NCBI GenBank assembly: GCA_041662625.1
Contig: JBAZSB010000001.1
Coordinates: 535,189-599,188, forward strand
DNA: 64,000 bases
Reading direction: 5' to 3'
Source: Patescibacteria group bacterium
GTDB lineage: Bacteria; Patescibacteriota; Patescibacteriia; Buchananbacterales; UBA6539
Positions 11,177-47,589 of the stretch are shown in pieces. Every line of letters starts with the position of its first letter. Position 1 is the first letter of the stretch. A program made the position numbers and the translations under genes. Under the pieces are notes generated by a model, which did not search any database, was not told the DNA's origin, and worked only from the letters and a program-made list of their open reading frames with translations.

Positions 11177-11680
11177 CTAAATATTTTTAAATACTATTTG
11201 ATTACCACAAAAATCCAGGAATTTTTTTAGGTCTTCGGTTTTAATAACTAAAGTAGCCGTATTGTCATTGGGATGAAAACCGATTTCTTCAGATCCAAAA
11301 AAATCCTGATCAACAATGACCGTGATGTTTTTTTCTTCATTATTAATCAAGCCAAAAACTGAAACTGATCCAGGGGTTAAACCTAAATACTTTTTTAAAT
11401 CTTCAGGTGAGGCAAAGCTTAATTTATCTTCGCCTAATTCTTTTGTCAACTGATTGAGATTAACTCTTTTGTCTGCCAAGACCGTAACGAGATAATAGGC
11501 AGTTTTTTTCTTGTTTCTCAAAAATAAATTTTTAGAGTGAGCACCGGGAATATCCAAATGTAAACTTTCTGATTCTTCAACCGTAAAAACTGCTGGGTGG
11601 TTGTATTTATGATACTTAATATTCAGCTGATCTAAAATTAGATAGATATCTTTCATAAAGATGTTTTGGCAGGCACGCAT
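11177..11680 (-). CDS. YbaK/ProX-family aminoacyl-tRNA deacylase
   Basis: DIPGAHSKNLFL...LGLTPGSVSVFGL matches the YbaK/ProX editing-domain family. The true start is probably an internal Met (MKDIYLIL). Confidence 0.7.
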   Translation of the reverse strand: MRACQNIFMKDIYLILDQLNIKYHKYNHPAVFTVEESESLHLDIPGAHSKNLFLRNKKKTAYYLVTVLADKRVNLNQLTKELGEDKLSFASPEDLKKYLGLTPGSVSVFGLINNEEKNITVIVDQDFFGSEEIGFHPNDNTATLVIKTEDLKKFLDFCGNQIVFKNI

Positions 11681-11848: not shown

Positions 11849-11924
11849 GTCGGGCTGGGGAGACTCGAACTCCCGGCCTCATGCACCCCATGCATGCGCG
11901 CTACCAACTACGCCACAGCCCGAC
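11849..11924 (-). tRNA. tRNA-Pro (anticodon GGG)
   Basis: Minus-strand read GTCGGGC TG..GTAGTTGGTAGCGC..CATGC ATGGGGT GCATG AGGCC GGGAG TTCGAGT CTCCC CAGCCCGAC. It has a 7-bp acceptor, a T-arm with GTTCGAG, and a 7-nt anticodon loop with U33 and G37. CCA is not encoded. Flanking sequence extends the acceptor pairing. Confidence 0.85.
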
Positions 11925-11953: not shown

Positions 11954-12062
11954 CCCCGCCTCAAGCCTCAAGTAAAAATTTATCTTTGACAGAAGTGAGC
12001 CGAAGGCGATTCCGAGGGCGAAGGTTCAATTTTTAAAAATATTCATTCGGGCTTGAGGCGGG
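11954..12062. repeat. Long hairpin element E3 (14-bp clamp CCCCGCCTCAAGCC / GGCTTGAGGCGGGG)
   Basis: Perfect 14-bp inverted termini. An internal GCCGAAGGC hairpin, the reverse complement of the E2 internal motif. Confidence 0.4.
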
Positions 12063-12121
12063 GCCATGCATGCGCTCAAGCCAACTTCGCTACGGCCCGA
12101 TGTTATTCATCATATACACAA

Positions 12122-12155
12122 AAAAACAAACCTGCAAGCTAGGGTTTGTTTTCCA
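12122..12155. terminator. Bidirectional intrinsic terminator-like hairpin (AAACAAACC-loop-GGTTTGTTT)
   Basis: 9-bp stem, T-rich on the plus side and a 7-T run on the minus side. Confidence 0.45.
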
Positions 12156-12417
12156 ACTTCAGAACTTCACTTCTAATTGGCCAAAGATTTTGGCTGAATG
12201 AAAGCCGGCCGTGTCAGACAATCAAACTTTTAAAGCATGGTTAGACACCTTAACGTGAGATTGTCTGCATTTGACCTTGGGGCTCGCAGGCTCCCGACCG
12301 TAGTCAGTACCGATTTAGAATCCCTACTCTCAAAGGTTGTCCCAAAACTTATGCCAACTGAGGGAAGTGAAGTTCACCTTTATTTTAGCACCCCCAAAAA
12401 GCGCTGTCAAAATTTTG

Positions 12418-12456
12418 TAAAAAAAGAGGGCCGAACAAGTCAGAAACTTGTGGCCC
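12418..12456 (-). terminator. Intrinsic terminator after DAHP synthase (GGGCCACAAG..CUUGUUCGGCCC + U-run)
   Basis: GC-rich hairpin followed by UCUUUUUUU on the minus strand, 30 nt past the stop. Confidence 0.55.
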
Positions 12457-12484
12457 CAAAAGAAACCCTCCCGCTTTGCAGAAC

Positions 12485-13519
12485 TTAGATGGTCCGGCCA
12501 ATAGCGATAGCCACGGCACGGACCTTGATCATTAGTTCAGCAAACTGCTGCGGATATAGCGACTGAGCGCCATCGCAAAGAGCTGAATCTGGATCAGGAT
12601 GAACTTCAATTAGTAATCCATCTGCGCCGACTGCTACTGCTCCCAAAGCGATGTCGGGTACAAGCTCGCGCTTGCCAGAAGGATGTGATGGGTCAAAGAT
12701 AACGGGGTGATGAGTCAACTTTTTGACGACCGGAATCGCGTCGAGATCGGCGTTGAAACGGGTGTAACCGTTATCAATGCCCCGGACACCACGAGCACAT
12801 AGGATTACTCGCGGGTTGCCAGAAGCAACGATGTACTCAGCGGCTAGTAGCCACTCATTAATGGTTGCAGCCATTCCCCGCTTCAGGATCACTGGCTTAT
12901 TGGTTCGACCAACAGCTTCCAACAAGGGGTAGTTTCCCATGTTGGCTGTACCAATCTGCAAGACATCAGCATATTGGGCGACCAACTCCACTAGCTCCGG
13001 CGAAATCACCTCCGTAACCGTGGCTAACCCCACTTGCCGTTTAGCCTGCTGTAATAGCCGCAGGCCTTCTTCGCCTAGACCTTGAAAGGCGAAAATTGAC
13101 TTACGTGGTTTGTAAGCACCTCCACGCAGCAGTCGAGCGCCGGCGGCCTTAACCGCTTCAGCACAACTAATCAGCTGCTGTTCGGATTCAACAGCACACG
13201 GTCCGGCTATCACCACCAGTGGCTCTGCACTGCCGATAGACACTCCGTTGAGGCGAACAGCGAAATCCTCTGGATGGGCCTGGCGAGCAGTCAAACGAAA
13301 CTGGGTAGTGGCAATCACCACATCAATGACGAAAGGCAGGCCACGGAAGAATTCCTGGAGCGCCAACTTGCGCTCATAATCCACCGCTCCGATGCAGTTA
13401 ATAACGATGATCTCTTTACCGCACGAGACCAACGTCTGCTCGAAACCGGCTTGTCTCGCCTCACTTTGGATTTTCCCGATCTGTTCTTTCGAACAGTCAC
13501 CTTTGATCTGAACAAACAT
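12485..13519 (-). CDS. 3-deoxy-7-phosphoheptulonate (DAHP) synthase, type Ibeta with N-terminal ACT/ferredoxin-like regulatory domain
   Basis: VVIAGPCAVESEQQ and LLRGGAYKPRKS are the KDO8PS-like DAHPS core. The start is taken as ATG 13519 (MFVQIKGD), which is preceded by GGAGG. GC-rich cassette. Confidence 0.8.
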   Translation of the reverse strand: MFVQIKGDCSKEQIGKIQSEARQAGFEQTLVSCGKEIIVINCIGAVDYERKLALQEFFRGLPFVIDVVIATTQFRLTARQAHPEDFAVRLNGVSIGSAEPLVVIAGPCAVESEQQLISCAEAVKAAGARLLRGGAYKPRKSIFAFQGLGEEGLRLLQQAKRQVGLATVTEVISPELVELVAQYADVLQIGTANMGNYPLLEAVGRTNKPVILKRGMAATINEWLLAAEYIVASGNPRVILCARGVRGIDNGYTRFNADLDAIPVVKKLTHHPVIFDPSHPSGKRELVPDIALGAVAVGADGLLIEVHPDPDSALCDGAQSLYPQQFAELMIKVRAVAIAIGRTI

Positions 13520-14360
13520 GATTGACCTCCTCTGCTTTAGGGTAAGAACCAACCACTACGACATCACTCACGAACCGTTCTTTGAGCTGCATAACCGCAG
13601 CGGCAAAGACCGGGTCACTCTCATGGCCATCAACATCAATCCAAAAGTAGCATTCTCCTAACGCCCGCTTGGTTGTATAGGAAGTAATGCGACTCAAGTT
13701 GAGGCCCTGATAGTAGAACACACCAAGAGCATGATACAGCGCCCCCGGTTCGTTCCTCGTAGAGAAGAAGAGAGTGGTCTTACTTTTACCATTGGCTGTT
13801 GTCCTGGGTCCTCCCAAGACAATAAAACGTGTCACGTTGTGTTGTGAATCGCCGATGTCAGCAGCCAGCACCTTAAGGCCAAATTGCTCAGCAGCCTGCT
13901 CGGAACTAATCGCCGCAACCATAGCCGATTCAGCCTGCGAGACCAACTCAGCAGCAAGCGCAGTGCTAGCCACTGGTGACTGTTTCCAACCACGGCCTCG
14001 CAAAAACTCCGAGCACTGAGCTAACCCCTGCGGATGCGACAAGACTTCGGTTACTGCCGACAATTCCGTTTGGGGTTTTGCTAAAAGCATCTGGCGAATT
14101 GGAATCAGTACTTCTTGGGTAATCCGCAGACCAGGCGTTGTCCAAACCCTGGCCATGAGAAAGTCGATGGTATCACGAACAACATCGCCCAAGACATTTT
14201 CCAACGGAACAATCGCCCGATCAATGCGGCCTTGAGTAAAGGCTTCGAGCAAATCAGGAATTGAATCAAACCCAACCAGCTCAAATTGGCCACGACCCCA
14301 GACGATTGCCGCTTGAGCGGAAAACGTTCCTAGCGGTCCTAGGTATCCTAACTTCAACAT
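13497..14360 (-). CDS. pheA: Prephenate dehydratase (PDT + ACT domains)
   Basis: LKLGYLGPLGTFS...TRF...TTKRALGECYFWIDVDGH is the PDT catalytic region plus a C-terminal ACT domain. The start is taken at the Met preceded by GGAAAGGAGA. Confidence 0.85.
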   Translation of the reverse strand: MLKLGYLGPLGTFSAQAAIVWGRGQFELVGFDSIPDLLEAFTQGRIDRAIVPLENVLGDVVRDTIDFLMARVWTTPGLRITQEVLIPIRQMLLAKPQTELSAVTEVLSHPQGLAQCSEFLRGRGWKQSPVASTALAAELVSQAESAMVAAISSEQAAEQFGLKVLAADIGDSQHNVTRFIVLGGPRTTANGKSKTTLFFSTRNEPGALYHALGVFYYQGLNLSRITSYTTKRALGECYFWIDVDGHESDPVFAAAVMQLKERFVSDVVVVGSYPKAEEVNHVCSDQR

Positions 14361-14388
14361 ACCCTGATGTCTCCTTTCCTCACTAGGG

Positions 14389-14847
14389 TTAATTGCCAAG
14401 ACCAGCTACCCGACCCAATACAAGCTCCAACAATCCCCGCCAACGACTGGGTTGTGACTCAATCTGGCGATCTGGTCTTCCATCTGGGAAAGTTGCTGCT
14501 GACGACGTCTGGCTTAAGCTAACGTTTGTCGCCTGAGGGCGGCTCTTCATGTCCGCAGCCAATCTCTCATAGATGTCACCGTAGACATCTTTCCACTTTG
14601 CATCAGCCGGTACCAGACCGCGCTCTTCGGCCAAAACCAGGATGGTTGGTTTGCTCAGATCACCCAGACAAATCAAGCCATTGGCCGCATCGTTGCCATC
14701 GCAACTATGGCACTGGTAGTACCGTGAAAGCTGAGCGATCAGATCATCCCGCGACCCGAAATCCAAACCGCAAGATCCGGCTTCAGCCTGCAGTGCCGCC
14801 GAGCTGAGCTGATTAAATCTCACTTGAACGCTCCATATACTCATATC
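14389..14847 (-). CDS. Hypothetical protein (152 aa), first gene of the Phe-attenuated operon
   Basis: GC-rich ORF with a strong SD (AAGGAAGGAGAG) before ATG 14847. No recognisable motif, and it is not an AroQ or AroH chorismate mutase. Confidence 0.5.
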   Translation of the reverse strand, partial: DMSIWSVQVRFNQLSSAALQAEAGSCGLDFGSRDDLIAQLSRYYQCHSCDGNDAANGLICLGDLSKPTILVLAEERGLVPADAKWKDVYGDIYERLAADMKSRPQATNVSLSQTSSAATFPDGRPDRQIESQPSRWRGLLELVLGRVAGLGN

Positions 14848-14976
14848 TTCTCTCCTTCCTTTCACTGAAGATTTCAAGTCCAATTTTCAAAGGGCGATTC
14901 TGGTTGCCCTCTCCAAACCAATCAGGCCTACTGCCTAATTGCTAACCCCTAGCTACCAAGAGTTAAAAATCAGGCA

Positions 14977-15013
14977 ATAAACAAAAAAACTGACCATTCA
15001 GTAGTAGATCAGT
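14977..15013 (-). terminator. Attenuator terminator of the Phe leader (ACUGAUC-loop-GGUCAGU + U7)
   Basis: Minus-strand hairpin followed by UUUUUUUGUUUAUUG. The leader segment ACUGACC at 15075-15081 can pair with the terminator 3' arm as an antiterminator. Confidence 0.55.
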
Positions 15014-15069
15014 TAGCTTTCCGTTTTTATTGATTTTGGCCTATTTTAAGCAAAATACAAGCTACCTGA

Positions 15070-15129
15070 CTACCGGTCAGTATAAAAGAAAAAGCTGAAA
15101 AACCATTTTACGGCTTGTGTCTTTTGCAT
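15070..15129 (-). CDS. Phe-rich leader peptide MQKTQAVKWFFSFFFYTDR (19 aa)
   Basis: The ATG lies ~5-9 nt after the predicted TSS, so the transcript is near-leaderless. There are 5 Phe, 1 Trp and 1 Tyr in a 9-codon run. It sits directly upstream of the terminator and the pheA-DAHPS operon. Confidence 0.6.
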   Translation of the reverse strand: MQKTQAVKWFFSFFFYTDR

Positions 15130-15140
15130 AGGATATTTGT

Positions 15141-15169
15141 AGCTTATCTTACTGTTTGAATATTGTCAA
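15141..15169 (-). promoter_or_regulatory. Sigma70-like promoter for the Phe leader (TTGACA-17-TAAGCT)
   Basis: -35 TTGACA, a 17-nt spacer and -10 TAAGCT on the minus strand. Confidence 0.45.
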
Positions 15170-15343
15170 GAAAACTGTGGGAATATTCCGCTAACAAGCA
15201 TCATGGCTTATTTATCCTAATTTGACTAAATCAATCTTCATCTCGCCCGCCGTAGCAGACTTAATTTTCAATATTCATATATCTTTAAAAACTTTCACTC
15301 ACCCTTCCTTGATGCCGACTATGGGACCTGTCGCGAAGGCGGG

Positions 15344-17515: not shown

Positions 17516-17627
17516 AAAAAATTAAATCACTCATACATTATAAACTCTTTTAGCCCCAAAGAAAAGGCCCCAAGTCAACGCGGACCTGGGGCAAAAAAGG
17601 ACAAACTAGCGTAAGCTAGAAATTTTC

Positions 17628-17781
17628 TGGTCGGGGTGGCAGGATTTGAACCTGCGTCATCGCTTATGCGACTGCTCTTCCTCCTTACGGAGCCTTATCC
17701 TCTATTCCCCAAGCTTATTTGATGATCGGGACCATCTTAGCCAGAGTGGGTACTAATTGGCATCGGCTGAGCTACACCCCG
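17628..17781 (-). ncRNA. tRNA-like RNA element (154 nt): canonical acceptor stem, T-arm and encoded CCA, but no D or anticodon arms
   Basis: The 5' end CGGGGUGUAGCUCAGCC pairs perfectly with the 3' end GCAGGUUCAAAUCCUGC CACCCCG A CCA. The middle is ~95 nt of structured insert (CUCC-GUAA-GGAG and GUCGC-AUAA-GCGAU tetraloop hairpins). Terminator hairpins plus U-runs follow on the minus strand. Confidence 0.45.
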
Positions 17782-17984
17782 TAAATAACATTTAACCAAC
17801 AACAGTTAACAATTAACTGATAAAATAAAAGAGCCCAGGAAGTTGGGCTGTTAAATGTTAACTGTCAATTGTTTTTAGCTAATGATAAACCCAACTTCCC
17901 TAAGGCAAGGTTGGGGGGACGGGCTGAGTTGAACTGAAACGTTTAATCATAGAATTATCTTACTACTACTTAAAAATTTTGTCA

Positions 17985-18020
17985 AAGAAAAAGGACCGGG
18001 TCGCACAAACACGGTCCTAC
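17985..18020 (-). terminator. Intrinsic terminator after the 167-aa gene (AGGACCG..CGGTCCT + U-run)
   Basis: 7-bp GC stem followed by UUUUUCUUUG on the minus strand. Confidence 0.5.
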
Positions 18021-18057
18021 AAGACAATCGACTGGGTGATTAAGATGTTACGACATC

Positions 18058-18561
18058 CTAGATGGTAACATTAAGCAGGTTTGTCTTACTTCTCCCACTC
18101 ATATCGATTACGCCGGTGGGTGGAATTACTCCTTTCACCAGCGATAGCTGGGAATCCCCGTGGCGGGGAGATACCACAACCGACAACAGAATGGGTTGTC
18201 CACCTACAATGAACGATACTTCGGGAATTACGAAGCATTGATCTGCGGTGACCAAATCTCTGAGTTGCCGGCTGCCGGCTTCACTGGCTGCTTGCGCCTG
18301 CTGGGCGGAAATCACCCTAAAGTAAATCAATGCTGCGCCAACCCGCGGGTTGACCCAAACGCAATGCTCGCCAGCATTGCCGTTGCAGTCGGCCAAGGCT
18401 CGGCAAATCCAGGCCATAGCAGCATCCACATCGGTCCGGTTAATGATTTCCGGACTGCAGGCAGTACTGATCTTAGCCTGATCATAACCTTGACCTGTCA
18501 GATGCCGGTCAAAAAACCAAACATCTCGTCCGTTTCCTTCGACTTTCAGTTGTACTGGCAT
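18058..18561 (-). CDS. Hypothetical protein (167 aa), under the Leu-rich leader
   Basis: GC-rich ORF with a very strong SD (GGAAGGAGG) 7 nt before ATG 18561. No recognisable motif. Confidence 0.55.
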   Translation of the reverse strand: MPVQLKVEGNGRDVWFFDRHLTGQGYDQAKISTACSPEIINRTDVDAAMAWICRALADCNGNAGEHCVWVNPRVGAALIYFRVISAQQAQAASEAGSRQLRDLVTADQCFVIPEVSFIVGGQPILLSVVVSPRHGDSQLSLVKGVIPPTGVIDMSGRSKTNLLNVTI

Positions 18562-18576
18562 TTCCAGGCCTCCTTC

Positions 18577-18753
18577 CTATTTCACCCGACCTAATTCCTT
18601 GCAGACCGGACACACTTTTGCCCCCTTGGGCATCCAGTGGTAATACTGGCAGGCTTCTGGGGCGTTAACCAACTCAATGTACAGCCAACGTCCGCCTACA
18701 ATGTAAGTGGCAACTATTGCCCCTACAATCCAGTGCCAAAGTGGTGGAAACAT
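18577..18753 (-). CDS. Small membrane protein (58 aa) MFPPLWHWIVGAIVATYIVGG...CPVCKEL, below ORF-track threshold
   Basis: One TM helix plus a C-terminal CxxC. An RBS-like GAAAGGGA precedes it. It lies between the Leu attenuator and the 167-aa gene. Confidence 0.4.
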   Translation of the reverse strand: MFPPLWHWIVGAIVATYIVGGRWLYIELVNAPEACQYYHWMPKGAKVCPVCKELGRVK

Positions 18754-18880
18754 ATTGCTATCCCTTTCTTGGTTGTCAATACTATTCTTCAGCTATAATG
18801 AGCAAACCTCCGCTCACCCCCACACCTATTTCACTAAAAAATTTTAGTAAACAGATAATGGCTTTAAAATAGGTGTAGGG

Positions 18881-18975
18881 GTAAACAAAACAACCTTCCG
18901 GGTGGAAGGCTGACTGGTATTTATCTAGCTACGATTTTTAGCTAAACACTAGTAAATCTTCCACCCAAAGGCTGG
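18881..18975 (-). terminator. Attenuator terminator of the Leu leader (conserved GGGUGGAAG / CUUCCACCC arms + UUGUUUUGUUU)
   Basis: Arms are ccttccgggtggaagg at 18893-18908 and cttccacccaaaggctgg at 18958-18975. Both arms are near-identical to those of the Ile attenuator at 22046-22141. Confidence 0.6.
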
Positions 18976-19028
18976 CTTAACAACAAGGCTAACAACAGTA
19001 AGCTAGATTGTTTGGCGAAAGATTTCAT
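18942..19028 (-). CDS. Leu-rich leader peptide MKSFAKQSSLLLLALLLSQPLGGRFTSV (28 aa)
   Basis: 7 Leu in a 9-codon run. The ORF starts ~5 nt after the predicted TSS. The stop codon lies inside the terminator loop. Confidence 0.6.
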   Translation of the reverse strand: MKSFAKQSSLLLLALLLSQPLGGRFTSV

Positions 19029-19039
19029 AGGATATTATT

Positions 19040-19068
19040 AGGTTAGCGCAAGTCCAAAAAAATGTCAA
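19040..19068 (-). promoter_or_regulatory. Sigma70-like promoter for the Leu leader (TTGACA-17-TAACCT)
   Basis: The -35 overlaps the U-tract of the upstream terminator. Confidence 0.45.
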
Positions 19069-19084
19069 GAAATAAAAAAAGGCC

Positions 19085-19125
19085 CGTAGTGACAGAGCCA
19101 AGCCATGTCACTACGGGACGAAGAA
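19085..19125 (-). terminator. Strong intrinsic terminator (12-bp stem CCCGTAGTGACA / TGTCACTACGGG + U7) after the 109-aa gene
   Basis: Perfect 12-bp inverted repeat followed by CUUUUUUUAUUUCUUG on the minus strand. Confidence 0.6.
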
Positions 19126-19163
19126 AACGATGGGTCGATAAAACCCTGAAGCAGTGCTTAGAT

Positions 19164-19493
19164 CTAGACCTGTGCGCCAAGCTCCCGCAGTTGAGCCAAA
19201 AGCTCCGGAGCGACAGCAACGCCATGCCGCTGACTCAGGAATTCAACAGTTGACGGAACGCAGACATAGCATAATTGAGCCTTTCTGTCTCTCCAGTGCC
19301 CTGGCTTACCGTTGCTGGGTTCAGGTCCTGGCAAATTCAGCTTAGTGTTGAGCACCTTAAGCTCCTGAAGATTCCCCCTTAGTCTCCGAAGGAGATCAGA
19401 AGGATCATCCAGCCTTTCACACTTGGTCCGCCGCGGGACCCTATCTACACCAACACCATCAACATCCTGTTCAATTCCAGCACAGTCTACCAT
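19164..19493 (-). CDS. Hypothetical protein (109 aa)
   Basis: GC-rich ORF with SD AAGGAG 9 nt before the ATG. No recognisable motif. Confidence 0.5.
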   Translation of the reverse strand: MVDCAGIEQDVDGVGVDRVPRRTKCERLDDPSDLLRRLRGNLQELKVLNTKLNLPGPEPSNGKPGHWRDRKAQLCYVCVPSTVEFLSQRHGVAVAPELLAQLRELGAQV

Positions 19494-19527
19494 GGTTCCT
19501 TCTCCTTCATGTTATCGATTCATTCAA

Positions 19528-19812
19528 TCAACACAAGCCACAAGTAGCATATACCGCTTCTTTGGTGATCATCCCAGAACCAGTTGCGTTGCCGCGAAAG
19601 ACTTTCACCCTACCATTAGTCCGGACGGCAAAACAATGATAAGCGCAGGCAACACCGGAGTAATGAAACTCCACTATTCGCGGATCACACTGACCACCGA
19701 TCACTAGTTGACCAGCCTCGTTGACAGAAATTCTGACCCTTCTGTCGTAGGTGACACTTTGACCGGGTTTGAGATCAAAAGTCGCATCCGGCATCAAATC
19801 ATCATCTTCCAT
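19528..19812 (-). CDS. Hypothetical Cys-containing protein (94 aa), under the Val-rich leader
   Basis: SD AGAGGAG before the ATG. C-terminal Cys pairs (ACAYHC...ATCGLC). No family recognised. Confidence 0.5.
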   Translation of the reverse strand: MEDDDLMPDATFDLKPGQSVTYDRRVRISVNEAGQLVIGGQCDPRIVEFHYSGVACAYHCFAVRTNGRVKVFRGNATGSGMITKEAVYATCGLC

Positions 19813-19929
19813 AGCCCTAACTCCTCTAAGTCTTATCGACTTGTTTGCAAAGAACAGATACGAATCTGCCCTCCTCTCCCTAAACTCGGTTTATTTCCTA
19901 CCCTCTGATCAGCAACATAAACAAAGGGT

Positions 19930-19962
19930 AATAAACAAAAAACTAGTCCTTTGACAGACTAG
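19930..19962 (-). terminator. Attenuator terminator of the Val leader (CUAGUC-loop-GACUAG + UUUUUUGUUUAUU)
   Basis: The 3' tail UUUUUUGUUUAUU(A/G)CC is shared with the Phe attenuator terminator. The leader codons GUA CUA GUC can compete for GACUAG. Confidence 0.5.
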
Positions 19963-19993
19963 GTGGTTCCAGTTCTAATTTTGGAAATCCAAA

Positions 19994-20059
19994 CTACCCA
20001 GTCTGCGAGACTAGTACGACGACGGTCAAAACGACAGTTGTCCGGGCAATAGATTTCAT
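19994..20059 (-). CDS. Val-rich leader peptide MKSIARTTVVLTVVVLVSQTG (21 aa)
   Basis: 6 Val in a 9-codon run. The MKS.A+ N-terminus and SQ.G C-terminus parallel the Leu and Ile leaders. Near-leaderless. Confidence 0.55.
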   Translation of the reverse strand: MKSIARTTVVLTVVVLVSQTG

Positions 20060-20065
20060 ACGATT

Positions 20066-20095
20066 AGTTTAGCAAATCAAAAATAATCTTGTCAA
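20066..20095 (-). promoter_or_regulatory. Sigma70-like promoter for the Val leader (TTGACA-18-TAAACT)
   Basis: Spacing and hexamers parallel the other three attenuator promoters. Confidence 0.4.
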
Positions 20096-20109
20096 ATTTT
20101 AAAAAAAGA

Positions 20110-20150
20110 CCGACCACCCCGTGACAGAGTAATCGGTCGCATAATACCTG
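20110..20150 (-). terminator. Intrinsic terminator after the LeuA/CimA-like gene (GACCGA..UCGGUC + U7)
   Basis: Hairpin followed by UUUUUUU on the minus strand. Confidence 0.5.
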
Positions 20151-20178
20151 GAGTTTTGCGCTTAGGCGATAGCTTTGA

Positions 20179-21945
20179 CTAACGGCGATGACAGTGCAGA
20201 AAGTACTGATAGCCGGCCGCTAATGCTCGGGCCGAAGCTTCGGTTACTGACTCGGAGACAGCAACTGTTCCCCAAATTTCATCACCATTATTCTTGATGC
20301 GCCAGAACAGTATTACCCGAACCCGGGCAGCTGTTCCGTCATGGTTAATCAACGCTTTCACGTTGTAGTTAACCAATTCAAGGCCTACCAGCTCGGGGAA
20401 AACCGGTTCACGCGACCGGCCACCGCGTTCCTGCAGTGCCTGACGCAGAGCTTTGTCCAAGGCGTTGACCAAGCCATCACCTTTGGCCGTCTTCAGACCG
20501 ATAGTCCGGCCATCAGCCAACTCGACTTGAACCGTTGCCTTGGGACTGCCCAGCATCAAATTCTGAAGCTGCCGATCAAGAGTTTCACCGGGCAAGCCGG
20601 TGTAGGGCGGAATCCTCTCAGTCAACTCGCACATCGTCACAGTGAAAAACGGCTGCAATCGGTCTAGCTGGCGCAAGGCCAAAAGTCGAAAACTACCCTC
20701 AGCCGTTTCAAACAGCCAACCATCCCTTTCCAAGCCGTGAACCTTATCAAGCAGCTCGCCAATTCGCGGATCGCTTGGTGCCAAGTTTCTGATAAACTCA
20801 GCTAATCGAACGCGCATCAAGGTTCGGCCGGCTTGATTGGATAGGCCAAGGCTGGTCTGGTTGCCAACCATTGCCGCCCGGATGTGCTCAACTGAATCAG
20901 GATCTTTCAGCCAAGCGTGACTGTGGGTTCCACCTTCGTGATGGAAGGCATTGGGTCCGGCCACCGGCAGGTTGAACGGAATTTCAATTCCCGCCAGATT
21001 GTAGACGTAGCGGGTCAGAGCCGTCCAAAGGGTAAGTTGCTTGGCGGTTACTACGGCAATGCCCATCTTAAGGACCAGACTGGGGATGATCGTGGTCAGG
21101 TTAGCATTGCCAGTCCGCTCACCGATACCACCAATCGTTCCTTGGACATGATCGCAACCGAGTTCAACTGCCAAAAGCGAATTGGCATCGCCCATGCCGG
21201 AATCATTATGGGTATGAACACCCCATTCGACTCCCTGATCCTTTAACCAAGGCACGACGTCGAGCAGAAAAGCAAGCCATTCTGCCGGCAAGGTCCCGCC
21301 GCGGGTGTCACATAGAACTATCCGGCGAGCCCCACCATTGATTGCAGCTGACAAAGTCTTGAAGAAGTATCTTCGGTCGTCTCGCCAGCCGTCAACCGCA
21401 TGCTCGGCATCATAAATGACGGTTTTGCCAACCGATACCAGCGCCGCTACCGTTTCTTCGATTATCCGCAGATTTTCTGCCAGCCGGATTTCCAAAACCC
21501 TTTGGACGTGAAGCTTCCAGCTCTTGCCGAAAACCACCACGTGACTTACGCCAGTATCCAAGACCGACTTGATCATCGGATTGGTGATAAGAATTCGCTC
21601 ACCAGGTTTGTTCGGCTTGACCGTTCCCATAAAAGCGTAAAAAGTCACGCCAAGCTGATGGTACCGCTTTCTTTGAGCGAGAAGCTGACGAAAGACCTCC
21701 GGGTTGACTTTGTCACTCGGCACTGGCCAGCCAACCTCAATATGGCGCAAGCCGGCTCTAACCGCCTGGCTAATCACACTCATCTTGTCCTCGGCCGTCC
21801 AAGTCAGACTCCGAGTCTGACCACCGTCACGACAAGTAGTGCAGAGCAGATCGACTTTCTTTGGTCGACCAAGCAATTTCAGCAACTTAGGCTCAGTCGC
21901 CAATCTCGCTATTACGTCAGCTAGTGACTTCTGAACTAACTGCAT
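20179..21945 (-). CDS. 2-isopropylmalate synthase / (R)-citramalate synthase family enzyme (HMGL-like TIM barrel + C-terminal LeuA-dimer regulatory domain)
   Basis: Contains RDGGQ, HTHNDSGMGDANSLLAVELGCDHVQGTIGGIGERTGNANL, and a long C-terminal regulatory region. The start is taken at the Met preceded by AAGGAGG (MQLVQKSL). The Ile-rich leader suggests citramalate synthase (isoleucine pathway), but this is inference. Confidence 0.8.
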   Translation of the reverse strand: MQLVQKSLADVIARLATEPKLLKLLGRPKKVDLLCTTCRDGGQTRSLTWTAEDKMSVISQAVRAGLRHIEVGWPVPSDKVNPEVFRQLLAQRKRYHQLGVTFYAFMGTVKPNKPGERILITNPMIKSVLDTGVSHVVVFGKSWKLHVQRVLEIRLAENLRIIEETVAALVSVGKTVIYDAEHAVDGWRDDRRYFFKTLSAAINGGARRIVLCDTRGGTLPAEWLAFLLDVVPWLKDQGVEWGVHTHNDSGMGDANSLLAVELGCDHVQGTIGGIGERTGNANLTTIIPSLVLKMGIAVVTAKQLTLWTALTRYVYNLAGIEIPFNLPVAGPNAFHHEGGTHSHAWLKDPDSVEHIRAAMVGNQTSLGLSNQAGRTLMRVRLAEFIRNLAPSDPRIGELLDKVHGLERDGWLFETAEGSFRLLALRQLDRLQPFFTVTMCELTERIPPYTGLPGETLDRQLQNLMLGSPKATVQVELADGRTIGLKTAKGDGLVNALDKALRQALQERGGRSREPVFPELVGLELVNYNVKALINHDGTAARVRVILFWRIKNNGDEIWGTVAVSESVTEASARALAAGYQYFLHCHRR

Positions 21946-22045
21946 ATCAGTATCCTCCTTCCGTTTGTCACGAATTATAACTCCAGTTGATGTCAAGGTT
22001 CCAACTCCCTCCATGACTTACAAAGACAATCTAAGTAAGACAATC

Positions 22046-22141
22046 AAAAAAACCTTCCGGGTGGAAAGTCTCTCTGATCGTTTTACTTATTTCTGATTTC
22101 TTATTTCTGATTTCTCATCTTAAGACTTCCACCCAAAGGCT
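22046..22141 (-). terminator. Attenuator terminator of the Ile leader (GGGUGGAAGUCUCU...AGAGACUUUCCACCC + U7)
   Basis: Long hairpin with a perfect U7. The 5' arm and preceding 22 nt (UUAGCCAGCCUUUGGGUGGAAG) are identical to the Leu attenuator. Confidence 0.65.
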
Positions 22142-22190
22142 GGCTAATGATGATAATACCGATAATAATGTTTTGCCGCGTAGAAGTCAT
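22101..22190 (-). CDS. Ile-rich leader peptide MTSTRQNIIIGIIIISQPLGGSLKMRNQK (29 aa)
   Basis: 7 Ile in an 8-codon run. The ORF starts ~9 nt after the predicted TSS. The SQPLGG segment is encoded by the conserved scaffold. Confidence 0.6.
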   Translation of the reverse strand: MTSTRQNIIIGIIIISQPLGGSLKMRNQK

Positions 22191-22205
22191 AATTTTTATA
22201 TCGTT

Positions 22206-22234
22206 ATCTTAAGCTAAACCAAAAGAATAGTCAA
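22206..22234 (-). promoter_or_regulatory. Sigma70-like promoter for the Ile leader (TTGACT-17-TAAGAT)
   Basis: Hexamers and 17-nt spacing read directly from the sequence. Confidence 0.45.
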
Positions 22235-45528: not shown

Positions 45529-47316
45529 CTATTGACTGGTAGCCCAAAAAATCAATTCGCCAGACTTAACACCGGAAGCCAAATAATTTCCCGGAACAGT
45601 TAAAGAAATCCCGGCAGTTTTACTTTCATTGGGCAGAAGGGTTTCGGTATAATCAGTACAAAGCTGGTCATTGATTTTAATCCCTGAAACAAAAACAACA
45701 TCACCGCTAACCGCAGCACCGACGTTTAAGCCGACTGTCCCGCCATTAGTTAAATTAACAACCCGGCTGTTAGTTTGGCCCGGCGCCAAAGTGCCGAAGT
45801 TAAGCTGGGACTGATCAACTACCAAAGCAATGGCTTCACCGCCAATATTACCGCCACCACTTTGGTTAATCTCAACTTGTAAACCCACTTTTTGACTGAC
45901 TGTATCACCAACAGTAATTTTTGATTTTTCACTACGAATAAATCCTGGCGTATCAATGTAAACTTGATAAAAACCATTCTGATTGATCGTTAAGGTCAGA
46001 TGCCCCGAAGCATCAGCAGTCCGAACTTCTTCGTTGACTTTAATCACTGCATTAGGTAAAGGCAACCAATCAGTGCCATTGAAATATTGGGCGGCAACAT
46101 TGACCACTTCACCCGGATCTATCTCAAGTGGACTGGCATTAAGTTGCGTTGGATTCCAGCCCCATTCACCATAATAGAAAAGGACTTCATCGCCGGCTGC
46201 CAAAGTATAGCTATCAGCGCCGATTGGCGGCGAAATATTATCCACGAAATAAAGCCAGCCTGACGTTCCTTGCGCTTGCTCATCATTGATTGCCCGTAGA
46301 TACGGGCCGTAACTTTCTTGAGTGATTGTATAAGTATAACCGCAGATGGCTGCAGCGTTTTTCACTAAATCTAAAGCGTTAGTACCAGCCACTTGGGTAT
46401 CACAAATAGTGCTGGTGCTACCCTCAAGTCGAAGATGATAAGTACCCAGGTTTGAACCGTTTTGATAATAGCCAACCGGATAAGTTTTATTACTTAAAGC
46501 AATAACCGCAAAAGCCGTCATCGCCTTATTATTCCACTCCGAAGTGCCTTCCGTAACCCACCAAAAACCGCCATCTCCATCCTGCAAAGATTGTAAATGA
46601 GTAACTGGATTTTTTCCATTCTGATTCCAACTGTTGGGATTAACCCCCGCTTTAATCAGGGCGGAAATCACCCAGGAATCTGACCCAGCATCAGAATCAC
46701 TTCCCACCTCATACCCAATTCCCCCGTCAGCATTTTGGGCGGATTGAATATAGGCTAAAGCCCCAGTAATTACCACATCACTGTTGCTAACTCCAGCTTC
46801 AACTAAAGCCATGATCGCCGCGGCCGTGTCATTGGTATCGCTGCCAGCACCAACCGAATAGCTCCAGCCGCCATCAACATTTTGATGAGCTAACAAAAAA
46901 TTCTTCGCCGCACTGGCTTCTGGTGAGTTAACTTCACCCACTGAAGCTAGGGCTAGAATCGACCAGGCATCATCATTCAGTAAATTTTTGTCTCCCATTT
47001 GGTTATCACTAAAATACGTTTTCAGTTTAGCTACATAATCAATGGTGCCAAAAGTTTTGGGGTTTTCCCCAACTGCGGCCAAAGCTAAGATAGTTTTGGC
47101 GTAATCCGTGGCTAAATTACCGGAAACACTATGCAAGTAGCCAACTGGAATACTGGTTTCACCGGCTGCTTTTAAAGCCAAAGTGATCCACGGATCATCA
47201 ACTTGGCTTTTCAGATAAGTTACTGCTTCTGGGACTCCAGCCGATACAAAAGCCGGCTGAAAGATGAATGCTAGCATCAGCAAACTAACCCAGAAATTTT
47301 TGATTTTTGTCCTCAT
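45529..47316 (-). CDS. Secreted alpha/alpha-toroid (prenyltransferase/squalene-oxidase repeat) protein, transcobalamin alpha-domain-like
   Basis: Signal peptide plus repeated QxxDGG(W/F) motifs (AHQNVDGGWSY, SAQNADGGIGY, SLQDGDGGFWW). First gene after the cobalamin riboswitch. Confidence 0.65.
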   Translation of the reverse strand: MRTKIKNFWVSLLMLAFIFQPAFVSAGVPEAVTYLKSQVDDPWITLALKAAGETSIPVGYLHSVSGNLATDYAKTILALAAVGENPKTFGTIDYVAKLKTYFSDNQMGDKNLLNDDAWSILALASVGEVNSPEASAAKNFLLAHQNVDGGWSYSVGAGSDTNDTAAAIMALVEAGVSNSDVVITGALAYIQSAQNADGGIGYEVGSDSDAGSDSWVISALIKAGVNPNSWNQNGKNPVTHLQSLQDGDGGFWWVTEGTSEWNNKAMTAFAVIALSNKTYPVGYYQNGSNLGTYHLRLEGSTSTICDTQVAGTNALDLVKNAAAICGYTYTITQESYGPYLRAINDEQAQGTSGWLYFVDNISPPIGADSYTLAAGDEVLFYYGEWGWNPTQLNASPLEIDPGEVVNVAAQYFNGTDWLPLPNAVIKVNEEVRTADASGHLTLTINQNGFYQVYIDTPGFIRSEKSKITVGDTVSQKVGLQVEINQSGGGNIGGEAIALVVDQSQLNFGTLAPGQTNSRVVNLTNGGTVGLNVGAAVSGDVVFVSGIKINDQLCTDYTETLLPNESKTAGISLTVPGNYLASGVKSGELIFWATSQ

Positions 47317-47322
47317 AAACAA

Positions 47323-47525
47323 AAAATCTCCCGCCTCGAGGGGGAGTGGTTACTTCATTCGTTCTCTTAGAAAACGAAAGGTCACCGACTCTTGATCTCG
47401 AAGAGTTTAGTGATTTAATAGAGCCATAATTTTCTCGACCTGGCTTACCCCGATTTTATATTGGGGATTACAGTTGCGGATCAGCGGAGGATTCACACCT
47501 CGCTTCGGAAAATTAAAGCTGTTTG
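47323..47525 (-). promoter_or_regulatory. Cobalamin (B12) riboswitch with intrinsic-terminator expression platform
   Basis: Minus-strand RNA contains GGUGUGAAUCC-UCC-GCUGAU-CCGCAACUGUAAUCCCC ... GGGGUAAGCCAGG. This matches the GGUG.AA.UCC...CCGC.ACUGUAA core and the AGYCAGG B12 box. The terminator CUCCCCCUCGAGGCGGGAG plus U6 ends ~10 nt before the start codon. Confidence 0.7.
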
Positions 47526-47589
47526 TCAAAGTATTATCATTGTAGATTGTCTAATTTTCAGTGTCAAGTAAATTTTGTGGATAACTTAA

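Follow-up and report, generated by a model that had tools for sequence, protein, structure and literature searches.

Why would a Patescibacteria group bacterium place four small proteins of no familiar kind under leader peptides rich in Val and Leu codons? The question arises from two short operons in a 64,000-nucleotide stretch of contig JBAZSB010000001.1 (NCBI GenBank assembly GCA_041662625.1, positions 535,189 to 599,188 of the forward strand), hereafter the window. In the first operon, a Val-rich leader precedes the genes for a 94-amino-acid (94-aa) and a 109-aa protein; in the second, a Leu-rich leader precedes those for a 58-aa and a 167-aa protein. An earlier note made from the sequence alone, here called the original prediction, had assigned the four genes in 18058-19812 to these two leaders. 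The analysis indicates that the operons are two of five tandem, separately promoted and terminated leader-peptide attenuators, and that their cargo likely consists of non-catalytic amino-acid-starvation effectors, a reading to which we give a probability of roughly 0.65. All features of the array are on the minus strand, and coordinates are window positions.

Val and Leu attenuators in a five-unit array

Five units, each with a promoter, a leader open reading frame (ORF), and a terminator, follow one another between 22.2 and 12.5 kb in the order Ile, Val, Leu, Pro, and Phe. A scan of both strands of the whole window for a promoter, a short ORF enriched in a single amino acid, and a terminator gives five matches, all of them leaders of this array; as these are the sole matches, the pattern is real rather than a product of chance. 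The array recurs in about 25 related metagenomic loci. They were collected from species-representative genomes and JGI metagenomes with a DNA signature common to the Ile and Leu attenuators (GGGTGGAAG ... TTCCACCCGGAAGG), and further loci came from contigs encoding homologues of the cargo proteins. L001 and L002 represent essentially the same strain, being 99.94-100% identical to the window, and L003 is a Candidatus Buchananbacteria metagenome-assembled genome (MAG). Two candidates from a genome-wide pattern scan, L006 and L007, were rejected as chance matches within coding regions. In the related loci, the array usually lies downstream of the genes for NDK, a helix-turn-helix (HTH) protein, and a small membrane protein, as in the window, and the leader peptides are strongly conserved, with the consensus ..NIIIGIIIISQPxGGSL.. 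for Ile, MKSIA.Q..VVVVV.. for Val, MKSF.KQSSLLLLGLLLxQPxGGRFTSV for Leu, M.KR.N..LPVPPxLP for Pro, and ..(W)FF.FFF.TDR for Phe. The arrangement is not an oddity of one genome but a conserved five-slot array in a Patescibacteria lineage.

The Val unit opens with a promoter (20066..20095) in which TTGACA and TAAACT, the latter with a TG, are separated by an 18-nucleotide (nt) spacer, and which matches the consensus scan at 10/12 positions. The Val leader ORF MKSIARTTVVLTVVVLVSQTG (19994..20059), located by sequence reading and the scan, has 21 codons with six Val within nine residues and lies just outside the stretch named in the original prediction; homologous MKSI...VVVVV leaders are present in eight other loci. 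Alignment and folding divide the attenuator RNA (19943..20015) into segment 1 (20015..20008), segment 2 (20004..19992), segment 3 (19968..19956), and segment 4 (19949..19943). Segments 3 and 4 form the terminator, followed by a T-run, and the terminator scan places this stem-loop and T-run at 19962..19943. Segment 2, which spans the stop codon, pairs with the 5' arm of the terminator, segment 3, to give an antiterminator of 13 base pairs (bp).

Across the nine aligned leaders, this 2:3 helix is 94.9% paired, with compensatory double changes at five pairs; covariation as strong as that observed arises in 0/500 column shuffles, and sliding the register of the pairing lowers it to 20-47% paired. 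The terminator is 96.8% paired across the aligned leaders. In ribosome-masked folding, a stall midway through the Val codons removes the terminator in 8/8 Val leaders, and with the ribosome at the stop codon, or without a stall, the terminator is present in all eight. The Val unit is a textbook 1:2 / 2:3 / 3:4 attenuator. With scarce Val-tRNA, the ribosome would stall at the Val codons and cover segment 1, whereby segment 2 would be free to pair with segment 3 as the antiterminator, and RNA polymerase would continue into the 94-aa and 109-aa genes. With plentiful Val-tRNA, the ribosome would reach the stop codon inside segment 2, and the 3:4 terminator would form.

The Val operon ends in a terminator (19074..19117) whose perfect 12-bp stem, as the original prediction had claimed, can be read directly from the sequence, with arms at 19117..19106 and 19094..19083, an 11-nt loop, and a T-run. 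The automatic terminator scan has a loop limit of 8 nt and hence missed it. The Leu promoter (19040..19068), also read from the sequence, follows with TTGACA, a 17-nt spacer, and TAACCT, so that a TTGACA-type promoter precedes both the Val and the Leu leader. In the sister loci, TTGACA stands at the position equivalent to the Val promoter, and the layout of the Leu promoter is likewise the same.

The Leu leader MKSFAKQSSLLLLALLLSQPLGGRFTSV (18942..19028 in the ORF list) contains seven Leu within eight residues and has about 20 homologous leaders. In the attenuator RNA (18891..18966, from the terminator scan and the leader alignment), the antiterminator strand GGGTGGAAG (18966..18958), made of the Gly-Gly-Arg codons of the leader, is complementary to CTTCCACCC (18908..18900), and the terminator is formed by the pairing of 18912..18904 with 18899..18891, followed by a T-run. 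In both the Leu and the Ile leaders, the coding stretch Gln-Pro-x-Gly-Gly-(Arg/Ser) reads CCAGCC....GGTGGAAG. The 5' arm and loop of the terminator (CTTCCACCC) are complementary to the 3' half of this stretch, and the 5' half of the stretch is similar to that 5' arm itself. GGTGGAAG does not vary among 13 aligned Leu leaders, its partner (C/T)TTCCA hardly varies, and both recur in the Ile leaders. Since this conservation covers the synonymous positions of two Gly codons, it argues for a constraint at the RNA level. The strand GGGTGGAAG would compete for the 5' arm of the terminator, and the attenuator would control the genes for the 58-aa membrane-anchored zinc-ribbon protein and the 167-aa protein. 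We model the Leu and Ile units as a compact three-segment version of the Val design.

The Val and Leu units thus share a single-amino-acid codon cluster in a short ORF after a promoter, an intrinsic terminator between leader and genes that is kept in relatives, and an alternative antiterminator overlapping that terminator, seen in covariation and masked folds for Val and proposed for Leu from complementary 9-mers that do not vary in the 13 aligned leaders. Leader-peptide regulation of the four small proteins, as originally proposed, is well supported by these sequence features, and the genes would be induced by a shortage of charged tRNA-Val or tRNA-Leu. Separately, a 15-bp inverted repeat, CCCCTACACCTATTT ... 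AAATAGGTGTGGGGG, lies at about 18879..18810 in the 5' untranslated region that separates the terminator of the Leu attenuator from the 58-aa gene, and could be a second regulatory or processing structure.

Four small proteins of new families

The Val operon encodes the 94-aa protein (19528..19812) and the 109-aa protein (19164..19493, with the ribosome-binding site GGAGAAGG). In the Leu operon, the 58-aa (18577..18753) and 167-aa (18058..18561) genes are separated by a gap of 15 nt, and the operon ends in the terminator GGACCG...CGGTCC with a T-run (17986..18017, by sequence reading), which adjoins the Pro-unit promoter. All four ORFs are taken from the ORF list, and a strong ribosome-binding site of the GGAG type stands ahead of each.

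The relatives of the 94-aa protein share 28-60% identity, and a Val leader stands ahead of this family in 8/8 evaluable loci. Its AlphaFold2 (AF2) model, with a predicted local distance difference test (pLDDT) score of 84.5, contains eight beta strands and one C-terminal helix, so that the protein is, judging by the model, a new beta-rich family with a C-terminal helix. The idea of an IlvN- or ACT-like Val binder was rejected; profile searches find no ACT or acetohydroxyacid synthase small-subunit domain, and the model is not of the beta-alpha-beta-beta-alpha-beta type. The second Val gene encodes a helical family. Its BLAST chain leads from the window to a 90-aa protein of L003 and on to a 109-aa protein of L004, and its profile is homologous to a family of 62-69 aa that occupies the equivalent place in L019, L026, and L027 (hhalign probability 87.6, E 3.5e-6). 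In L036, an MMVDCAG... homologue of the 109-aa protein directly follows the 94-aa-family gene, and the partner of the 94-aa protein (second genes of 62-109 aa) is one family over eight loci.

The 58-aa protein is predicted from its sequence to possess an N-terminal transmembrane (TM) helix and a cytoplasmic C/H...CPxC zinc ribbon, which refines its earlier description as a single-TM CxxC protein. It was aligned with seven relatives, each of which is the first gene after a Leu leader where upstream sequence is present. For the 167-aa protein, a word-indexed homology search returns the self match only, whereas a full HMMER scan of 1.84 billion representatives finds eight full-length relatives of about 160 aa (E 3e-19 to 4e-5, 25-37% identity). 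F17, R19, W51, L56, W69, N71, L78, V115, F117, V128, S131, and R133 are invariant in this family. The AF2 model, built from the nine-sequence alignment, has a pLDDT of 89.7 and a predicted template-modelling score of 0.87 and assigns the protein to a new alpha/beta family. A Leu leader lies ahead of the 167-aa family in all eight loci with upstream sequence present (the window, L027, L010, L005, L029, L032, L033, and L034). The gene before it is usually one for a TM and zinc-ribbon protein like the 58-aa protein, one for a 'GGRxDPF' protein of about 60 aa, or both. One of these loci, L005 (CAZHUO010000019.1), belongs to a MAG labelled 'uncultured Gammaproteobacteria', yet it carries a Patescibacteria-type Leu leader, a TM and zinc-ribbon gene, and a 167-aa-family gene, and its HTH gene is about 81% identical to that of the window; the contig is probably mis-binned.

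The original prediction had recognised no family for any of the four proteins, and this stands: together with the 151-aa protein that heads the Phe operon, they show no significant match in Pfam, NCBIfam, PHROGs, or PADLOC, either as single proteins or with each family member in turn, and the PHROG and Pfam matches of the four are non-significant (E > 0.08). No resemblance to IlvB, IlvN, IlvC, or LeuBCD appears either, and neither Pfam, NCBIfam, nor profile comparison reveals similarity between the window's Val or Leu cargo and any biosynthetic enzyme. Homology to ordinary enzymes, which was said beforehand to make the arrangement conventional, was not found in these searches; the family profiles match nothing among PDB sequences, and BFVD yields no match. 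Profile comparison of the 94-, 109-, and 167-aa families with LeuA, the LeuA allosteric domain, PheA, and DAHP (3-deoxy-D-arabino-heptulosonate 7-phosphate) synthase finds no similarity; for the 94-aa family against LeuA_dimer, hhalign gives P 0.13. In the same way, BLAST and hhalign reject the 167-aa protein as a LeuA relic or regulatory domain, with P = 0.56 against the LeuA/CimA C-terminal domains and 0.43 against the full-length proteins, and no member of its family matches PF08502 in Pfam.

Such results could arise if the ORFs were decaying remnants or spurious frames after the loss of biosynthetic genes, with the attenuators as relics. Patescibacteria are generally reduced and reported to be without most amino-acid biosynthesis, which counts in favour of this view, as do the Val leader of L003, which has lost its Val run, and the absence of the 109-aa and 58-aa genes from the NCBI annotation. 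Nevertheless, the homologues of the four ORFs are full-length, with 25-60% identity and with hydrophobic cores and motifs kept; the leaders, antiterminators, and terminators persist, with compensatory changes; and the four proteins show no similarity to LeuA, PheA, or DAHP synthase by BLAST or profile comparison. The strong ribosome-binding sites, the homologues, and the confident AF2 models of the 94- and 167-aa proteins (pLDDT 84-90, each built on just 8-9 sequences) together make the four ORFs real genes. At the level of sequence, these comparisons establish the products as genuine proteins under selection, of new lineage-restricted families seen only in cognate slots, and decay is very improbable.

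Still less is to be said for the suggestion that the small Cys-containing proteins are precursors resembling ribosomally synthesised and post-translationally modified peptides (RiPPs). Several Cys do occur in the 94-aa and 58-aa proteins, but those of the former, pointed out earlier as pairs, are only partly conserved in the family, their positions not being invariant, and the Cys and His residues of the 58-aa protein follow a zinc-ribbon pattern behind a TM helix. Neither operon contains a gene for a modifying enzyme, protease, or exporter, the terminator comes right after the second gene, and the AF2 models of the 94- and 167-aa proteins are compact globular folds. The remnant and RiPP explanations are essentially excluded. 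Among the roles proposed at first, that of an exporter is also not supported, the sole membrane element being the single TM helix on the 58-aa zinc ribbon.

Slot cargo across the related loci

The other slots of the array indicate what kind of product its leaders control. In the Ile unit (20179..22234), the promoter (22234..22206) is followed by the leader MTSTRQNIIIGIIIISQPLGG... (22190..22101), which contains seven Ile, a terminator, and a lone citramalate-synthase-like gene (21945 or 22014..20179) with its own terminator (20138..20108). The best match of the encoded protein is the citramalate synthase model TIGR00977 (398 bits, cut-off 450). In 4/4 sister loci tested, the Ile-slot proteins match best to citramalate synthase models and the Leu-slot proteins to 2-isopropylmalate synthase models, three of the latter above the curated cut-off. 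The Pro slot of L028 encodes an amino-acid kinase resembling ProB, and a ProB-like kinase is also present in that of L004. In the Phe slot, prephenate dehydratase (PheA) and DAHP synthase are found. The leader therefore matches the cargo wherever the cargo is recognisable, and LeuA, CimA, the ProB-like kinase, and PheA with DAHP synthase are first committed, feedback-regulated enzymes.

Within a slot, the cargo differs widely. The Ile-slot proteins of the window and L023 share 31% identity, whereas the DAHP synthases of the same pair share 81%. The Leu slot holds LeuA in six sister loci, in three subfamilies (the long PRK03739 form, the short PRK00915 form, and the Leptospira LeuA2 type), and the 167-aa family in eight others; in L004, a 65-aa TM and zinc-ribbon protein of the 58-aa kind precedes LeuA. 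Such differing subfamilies within one slot suggest that the slot is conserved and its cargo repeatedly replaced by functional equivalents.

Not all of these outputs are enzymes. In L016 (2756-3385 and 3751-4131), stand-alone LeuA allosteric domains (PF08502; E 1.9e-5 and 5.8e-11) lie under Ile- and Leu-type leaders. Five small Ile-slot proteins of 124-147 aa (L020, L022, L003, L026, and L008) align weakly with the CimA/LeuA C-terminal domain (P = 8e-4, 95 columns), which is suggestive of a relationship to the LeuA allosteric domain. The Pro unit (17567..17985) comprises a promoter (17985..17957), the leader MIKRFSSTQPVPPTLP (17950..17900), and a 1:2/2:3/3:4 attenuator, followed by a 153-nt tRNA-Pro-like RNA (17780..17628) and a terminator (17592..17567). 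Similar RNAs occupy the Pro slot in six loci, namely the window, L027, L019 (two copies), L020, L023, and L029. They combine a tRNA-Pro acceptor stem (C1-G72, A73) with an encoded CCA and a canonical T arm. The D arm of the window copy carries a large insertion, and its anticodon arm has a 4-nt loop; over the group, the 'anticodon arm' is a stem of 5-10 bp with a closing loop of 3-4 nt, which leaves the RNA without an anticodon. Rfam gives a weak match to transfer-messenger RNA only. Together with the stand-alone allosteric domains, these RNAs make non-enzymatic outputs a recurrent feature of the array. A further tRNA-like element of 84 nt (L004, 3703-3786; 'tRNA-His gtg' in ARAGORN) lies between the Val-leader terminator and the 94-aa-family gene, and tRNA-like RNAs may thus not be limited to the Pro slot.

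The four proteins of the window would accordingly form the output arm of amino-acid-specific starvation sensing and would help to replenish the cognate amino acid or the tRNA charged with it, or to adjust the cell to the shortage. This role is suggested because the equivalent slots hold LeuA, CimA, the ProB-like kinase, PheA with DAHP synthase, regulatory domains, and a tRNA mimic. By the same analogy, the products would serve the same end as the enzymes of those slots, namely to restore or cope with the supply of the cognate amino acid, and would most probably be binding or regulatory proteins and not catalysts.

The displacement seen in the Leu slot could also be read differently. The 167-aa protein, with the 58-aa protein, and by extension the 94- and 109-aa proteins, might be non-homologous replacements of the missing enzyme, that is, novel catalysts or subunits that make or salvage Leu or Val. 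The exchange in situ between LeuA and the 167-aa family fits this proposal, as do the invariant polar residues R19, N71, S131, and R133 on a confidently folded domain. On the other hand, the proteins are very small for such chemistry; neither a cofactor motif nor a metal motif occurs in them, and they resemble no enzyme fold. Several polar positions common to most members of the 167-aa family are changed in the window copy (NPH to NPR and SRD to PRH), and the Val slot, which is without a recognisable enzyme in any of about ten loci, offers nothing to displace. No positive evidence was found for the novel pathway enzymes that the original prediction had listed among possible roles, and this explanation is possible but quite unlikely.

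Several observations weigh against the starvation-effector reading. Among the structure and profile searches, no fold or sequence relative hints at an activity of the cargo. The cargo genes lie 8-14 GC points above the backbone genes in 11/11 loci, third codon positions included; the window's GC-richer genes are those at 12000-15200 and 18000-22100. The small proteins have also diverged far more than the backbone has. In a comparison of the window with L027, the ABC transporter genes share 84-91% identity and the CimA-like gene 77%, whereas the 94-aa protein shares 60%, the 58-aa protein 50%, the 151-aa protein 46%, and the 167-aa protein 35%, so that the small proteins span 35-60%. Conflict-type or accessory genes with no bearing on amino-acid supply could show such divergence as well. 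Furthermore, in ribosome-masked folding of the Leu leader, the terminator persists in most masked states and the two states are not cleanly separated, and the Leu pairing shows almost no covariation because its strands are invariant or nearly so in the 13 leaders; the proposed Leu mechanism therefore rests on conserved complementarity and analogy.

The higher GC of the cargo is compatible with repeated horizontal replacement, and selection is also possible. Codon choice was dropped as its cause, since the low use of TTA for Leu (0.12 in cargo, 0.37 in backbone) looks like a general GC shift. Depletion of the cargo in the cognate amino acid was not seen either, the 94-aa protein, for example, containing 10.6% Val. 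Either the small proteins evolve fast, or the cassettes are swapped between genomes, perhaps via recombination in the conserved leaders.

These features are what fast-turnover accessory cassettes, such as toxin-antitoxin, defence, or host-interaction genes, might be expected to show if they had come to lie behind strong, starvation-inducible promoters, with functions unrelated to the amino acid. Besides the divergence and the GC-richer cargo of every locus, the small two-gene modules agree with such an origin, and content differs even among close relatives, since the PheA of L003 is 78% identical to that of the window, yet L003 has different small proteins in every slot. However, each family is tied to one leader type across divergent genomes, in 8/8 loci for the 94-aa family and 8/8 for the 167-aa family, which random capture would not give, and recognisable cargo always matches the amino acid of its leader. 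In addition, PHROG searches yield no significant hits, and no PADLOC model of anti-phage defence or toxin-antitoxin systems matches the cargo proteins. Accessory cassettes are a possible but unlikely explanation. Together with the presence of the array in about 25 loci, the same counts supply the conservation of genomic neighbourhood for which a search had been proposed at the outset, and they favour the reading as starvation effectors.

Beyond the Val and Leu operons, the Phe unit (12485..15165) consists of a promoter, the leader MQKTQAVKWFFSFFFYTDR (15129..15070), an attenuator, and genes for the 151-aa protein (14844..14389), prephenate dehydratase (14360..13497), and DAHP synthase (13519..12485). 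The head protein, previously reported as unrecognised, is indeed without a match in the same database searches, but its length is 151 aa and not 152; it starts at an ATG preceded by a ribosome-binding site, and a 154-aa homologue with 46% identity lies in the same place in L027. In other loci, a Cys-rich domain of about 110 aa (..CP....Q.IE....C..C.Y..PR.KGECPF.F..), a family distinct from the 151-aa protein, precedes prephenate dehydratase in the Phe slot and is fused to it in L028. Its sites are L023 10798-11142, L028 5822-7030, and L027 8945-9664 in oriented coordinates, and L032 1842-2114 in locus coordinates.

Just downstream of the DAHP synthase gene, the minus strand at 12410..12130 carries a near-consensus promoter (TTGACA, 17-nt spacer, TAAAAT, TG) and then about 250 nt of non-coding sequence with a long closing stem and, at its end, a terminator-like hairpin and T-run; it has no Rfam match and, from these features, may be a small RNA. 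At 12098..12060 (minus strand), inverted repeats flank a partial copy of the 5' half of tRNA-Pro(GGG). It precedes the intact tRNA-Pro(GGG) gene (11922..11849) by about 140 nt and could be a relic of integration or recombination at the edge of the GC-rich Phe cassette. The next gene (11680..11177) encodes a YbaK-type tRNA_edit domain. Elsewhere in the window, an AdoCbl (cobalamin) riboswitch (47534..47379, minus strand; 52.5 bits, Rfam gathering threshold 50) lies upstream of the ORF at 45529..47322.

Known attenuators and the meaning of the array

Like the enterobacterial attenuators of leu (leuL), ilvBN (ivbL), ilvGMEDA (ilvL), pheA (pheL), thr, his, and trp, the array units have their own promoter, a short ORF with a codon run, and mutually exclusive hairpins, and where their cargo can be recognised, it is the feedback-inhibited enzyme at the first committed step of the cognate pathway. 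The differences are nonetheless considerable. The host belongs to the Patescibacteria, or candidate phyla radiation (CPR), the units form a tandem series of five single-cassette units, and the Val and Leu cargo of the window consists of small proteins of new families instead of biosynthetic ones. The Leu and Ile units have three segments, with the Gln-Pro-x-Gly-Gly coding stretch as the antiterminator strand. In sequence, the array falls below the threshold of every Rfam leader family; no match in the region reaches the gathering level, the best being Phe_leader on the Leu leader, with 27.1 bits against 55.

Attenuators with non-biosynthetic cargo are known from the pheST leader (pheM) and from the Salmonella Pro-codon leaders mgtL and mgtP of mgtA and mgtCBR. 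As in the Val and Leu units, a leader rich in a single amino acid senses tRNA charging there and controls genes outside the pathway enzymes. The functions of those cargoes are known (a tRNA synthetase, Mg2+ transport, and virulence), in contrast to the uncharacterised families and the Pro-slot tRNA-like RNA of the array. LeuA_dimer (PF08502) and ACT-type IlvN offer another comparison. The stand-alone LeuA_dimer proteins under the leaders of L016 show that small ligand-binding proteins do occupy array slots, but Pfam finds neither domain in the four window proteins, and the 94-aa model is not an ACT fold. With the general class of membrane-anchored zinc-ribbon proteins, the 58-aa protein shares one TM helix and the C/H...CPxC knuckles, but it matches no family, and its order, with the TM helix N-terminal and the zinc site C-terminal, differs from that of ZAS anti-sigma factors.

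The regulatory principle itself is classical. Literature searches returned no description of leader-peptide attenuation in Patescibacteria, nor of tRNA-like RNAs under proline leaders. As far as the database and literature searches go, the five-unit array in Patescibacteria, its organisation into slots with replaceable cargo, four or five uncharacterised families with a defined (predicted) inducing signal, and the anticodon-less tRNA-Pro mimic are new, and the arrangement that the original prediction had called unusual proves so on a larger scale, as a five-slot array with small proteins of new families as cargo.

A more specific version of the starvation reading, doubtful but possible, would make the Ile-Val-Leu-Pro-Phe array a regulon that answers starvation one amino acid at a time. 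In it, first enzymes would repeatedly have been swapped for non-enzymatic effectors, namely stand-alone allosteric domains, the anticodon-less tRNA-Pro mimic, and the 94/109-aa and 58/167-aa pairs, which would act on uptake from the host, tRNA charging, or translation.

Patescibacteria are thought to depend on the amino acids of their hosts. Such organisms retain, in compact form, five classical sensors of tRNA charging, each for its own amino acid, and the output of this array is often not an enzyme but a lineage-specific small protein or, for Pro, a tRNA-like RNA. At least four new families are linked with a specific signal, which is Val for the 94-aa and 109/62-aa families and Leu for those of the 58-aa zinc-ribbon protein and the 167-aa protein. 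For 'hypothetical' genes of uncultured organisms, an inducing condition is rarely known, and having one renders their function testable. Meanwhile, one conserved regulatory slot with replaceable cargo provides a clean natural case of in-situ gene displacement. If the starvation-regulon reading is true, the new proteins would represent a previously unknown class of amino-acid-specific stress effectors in ultra-small, host-dependent bacteria.

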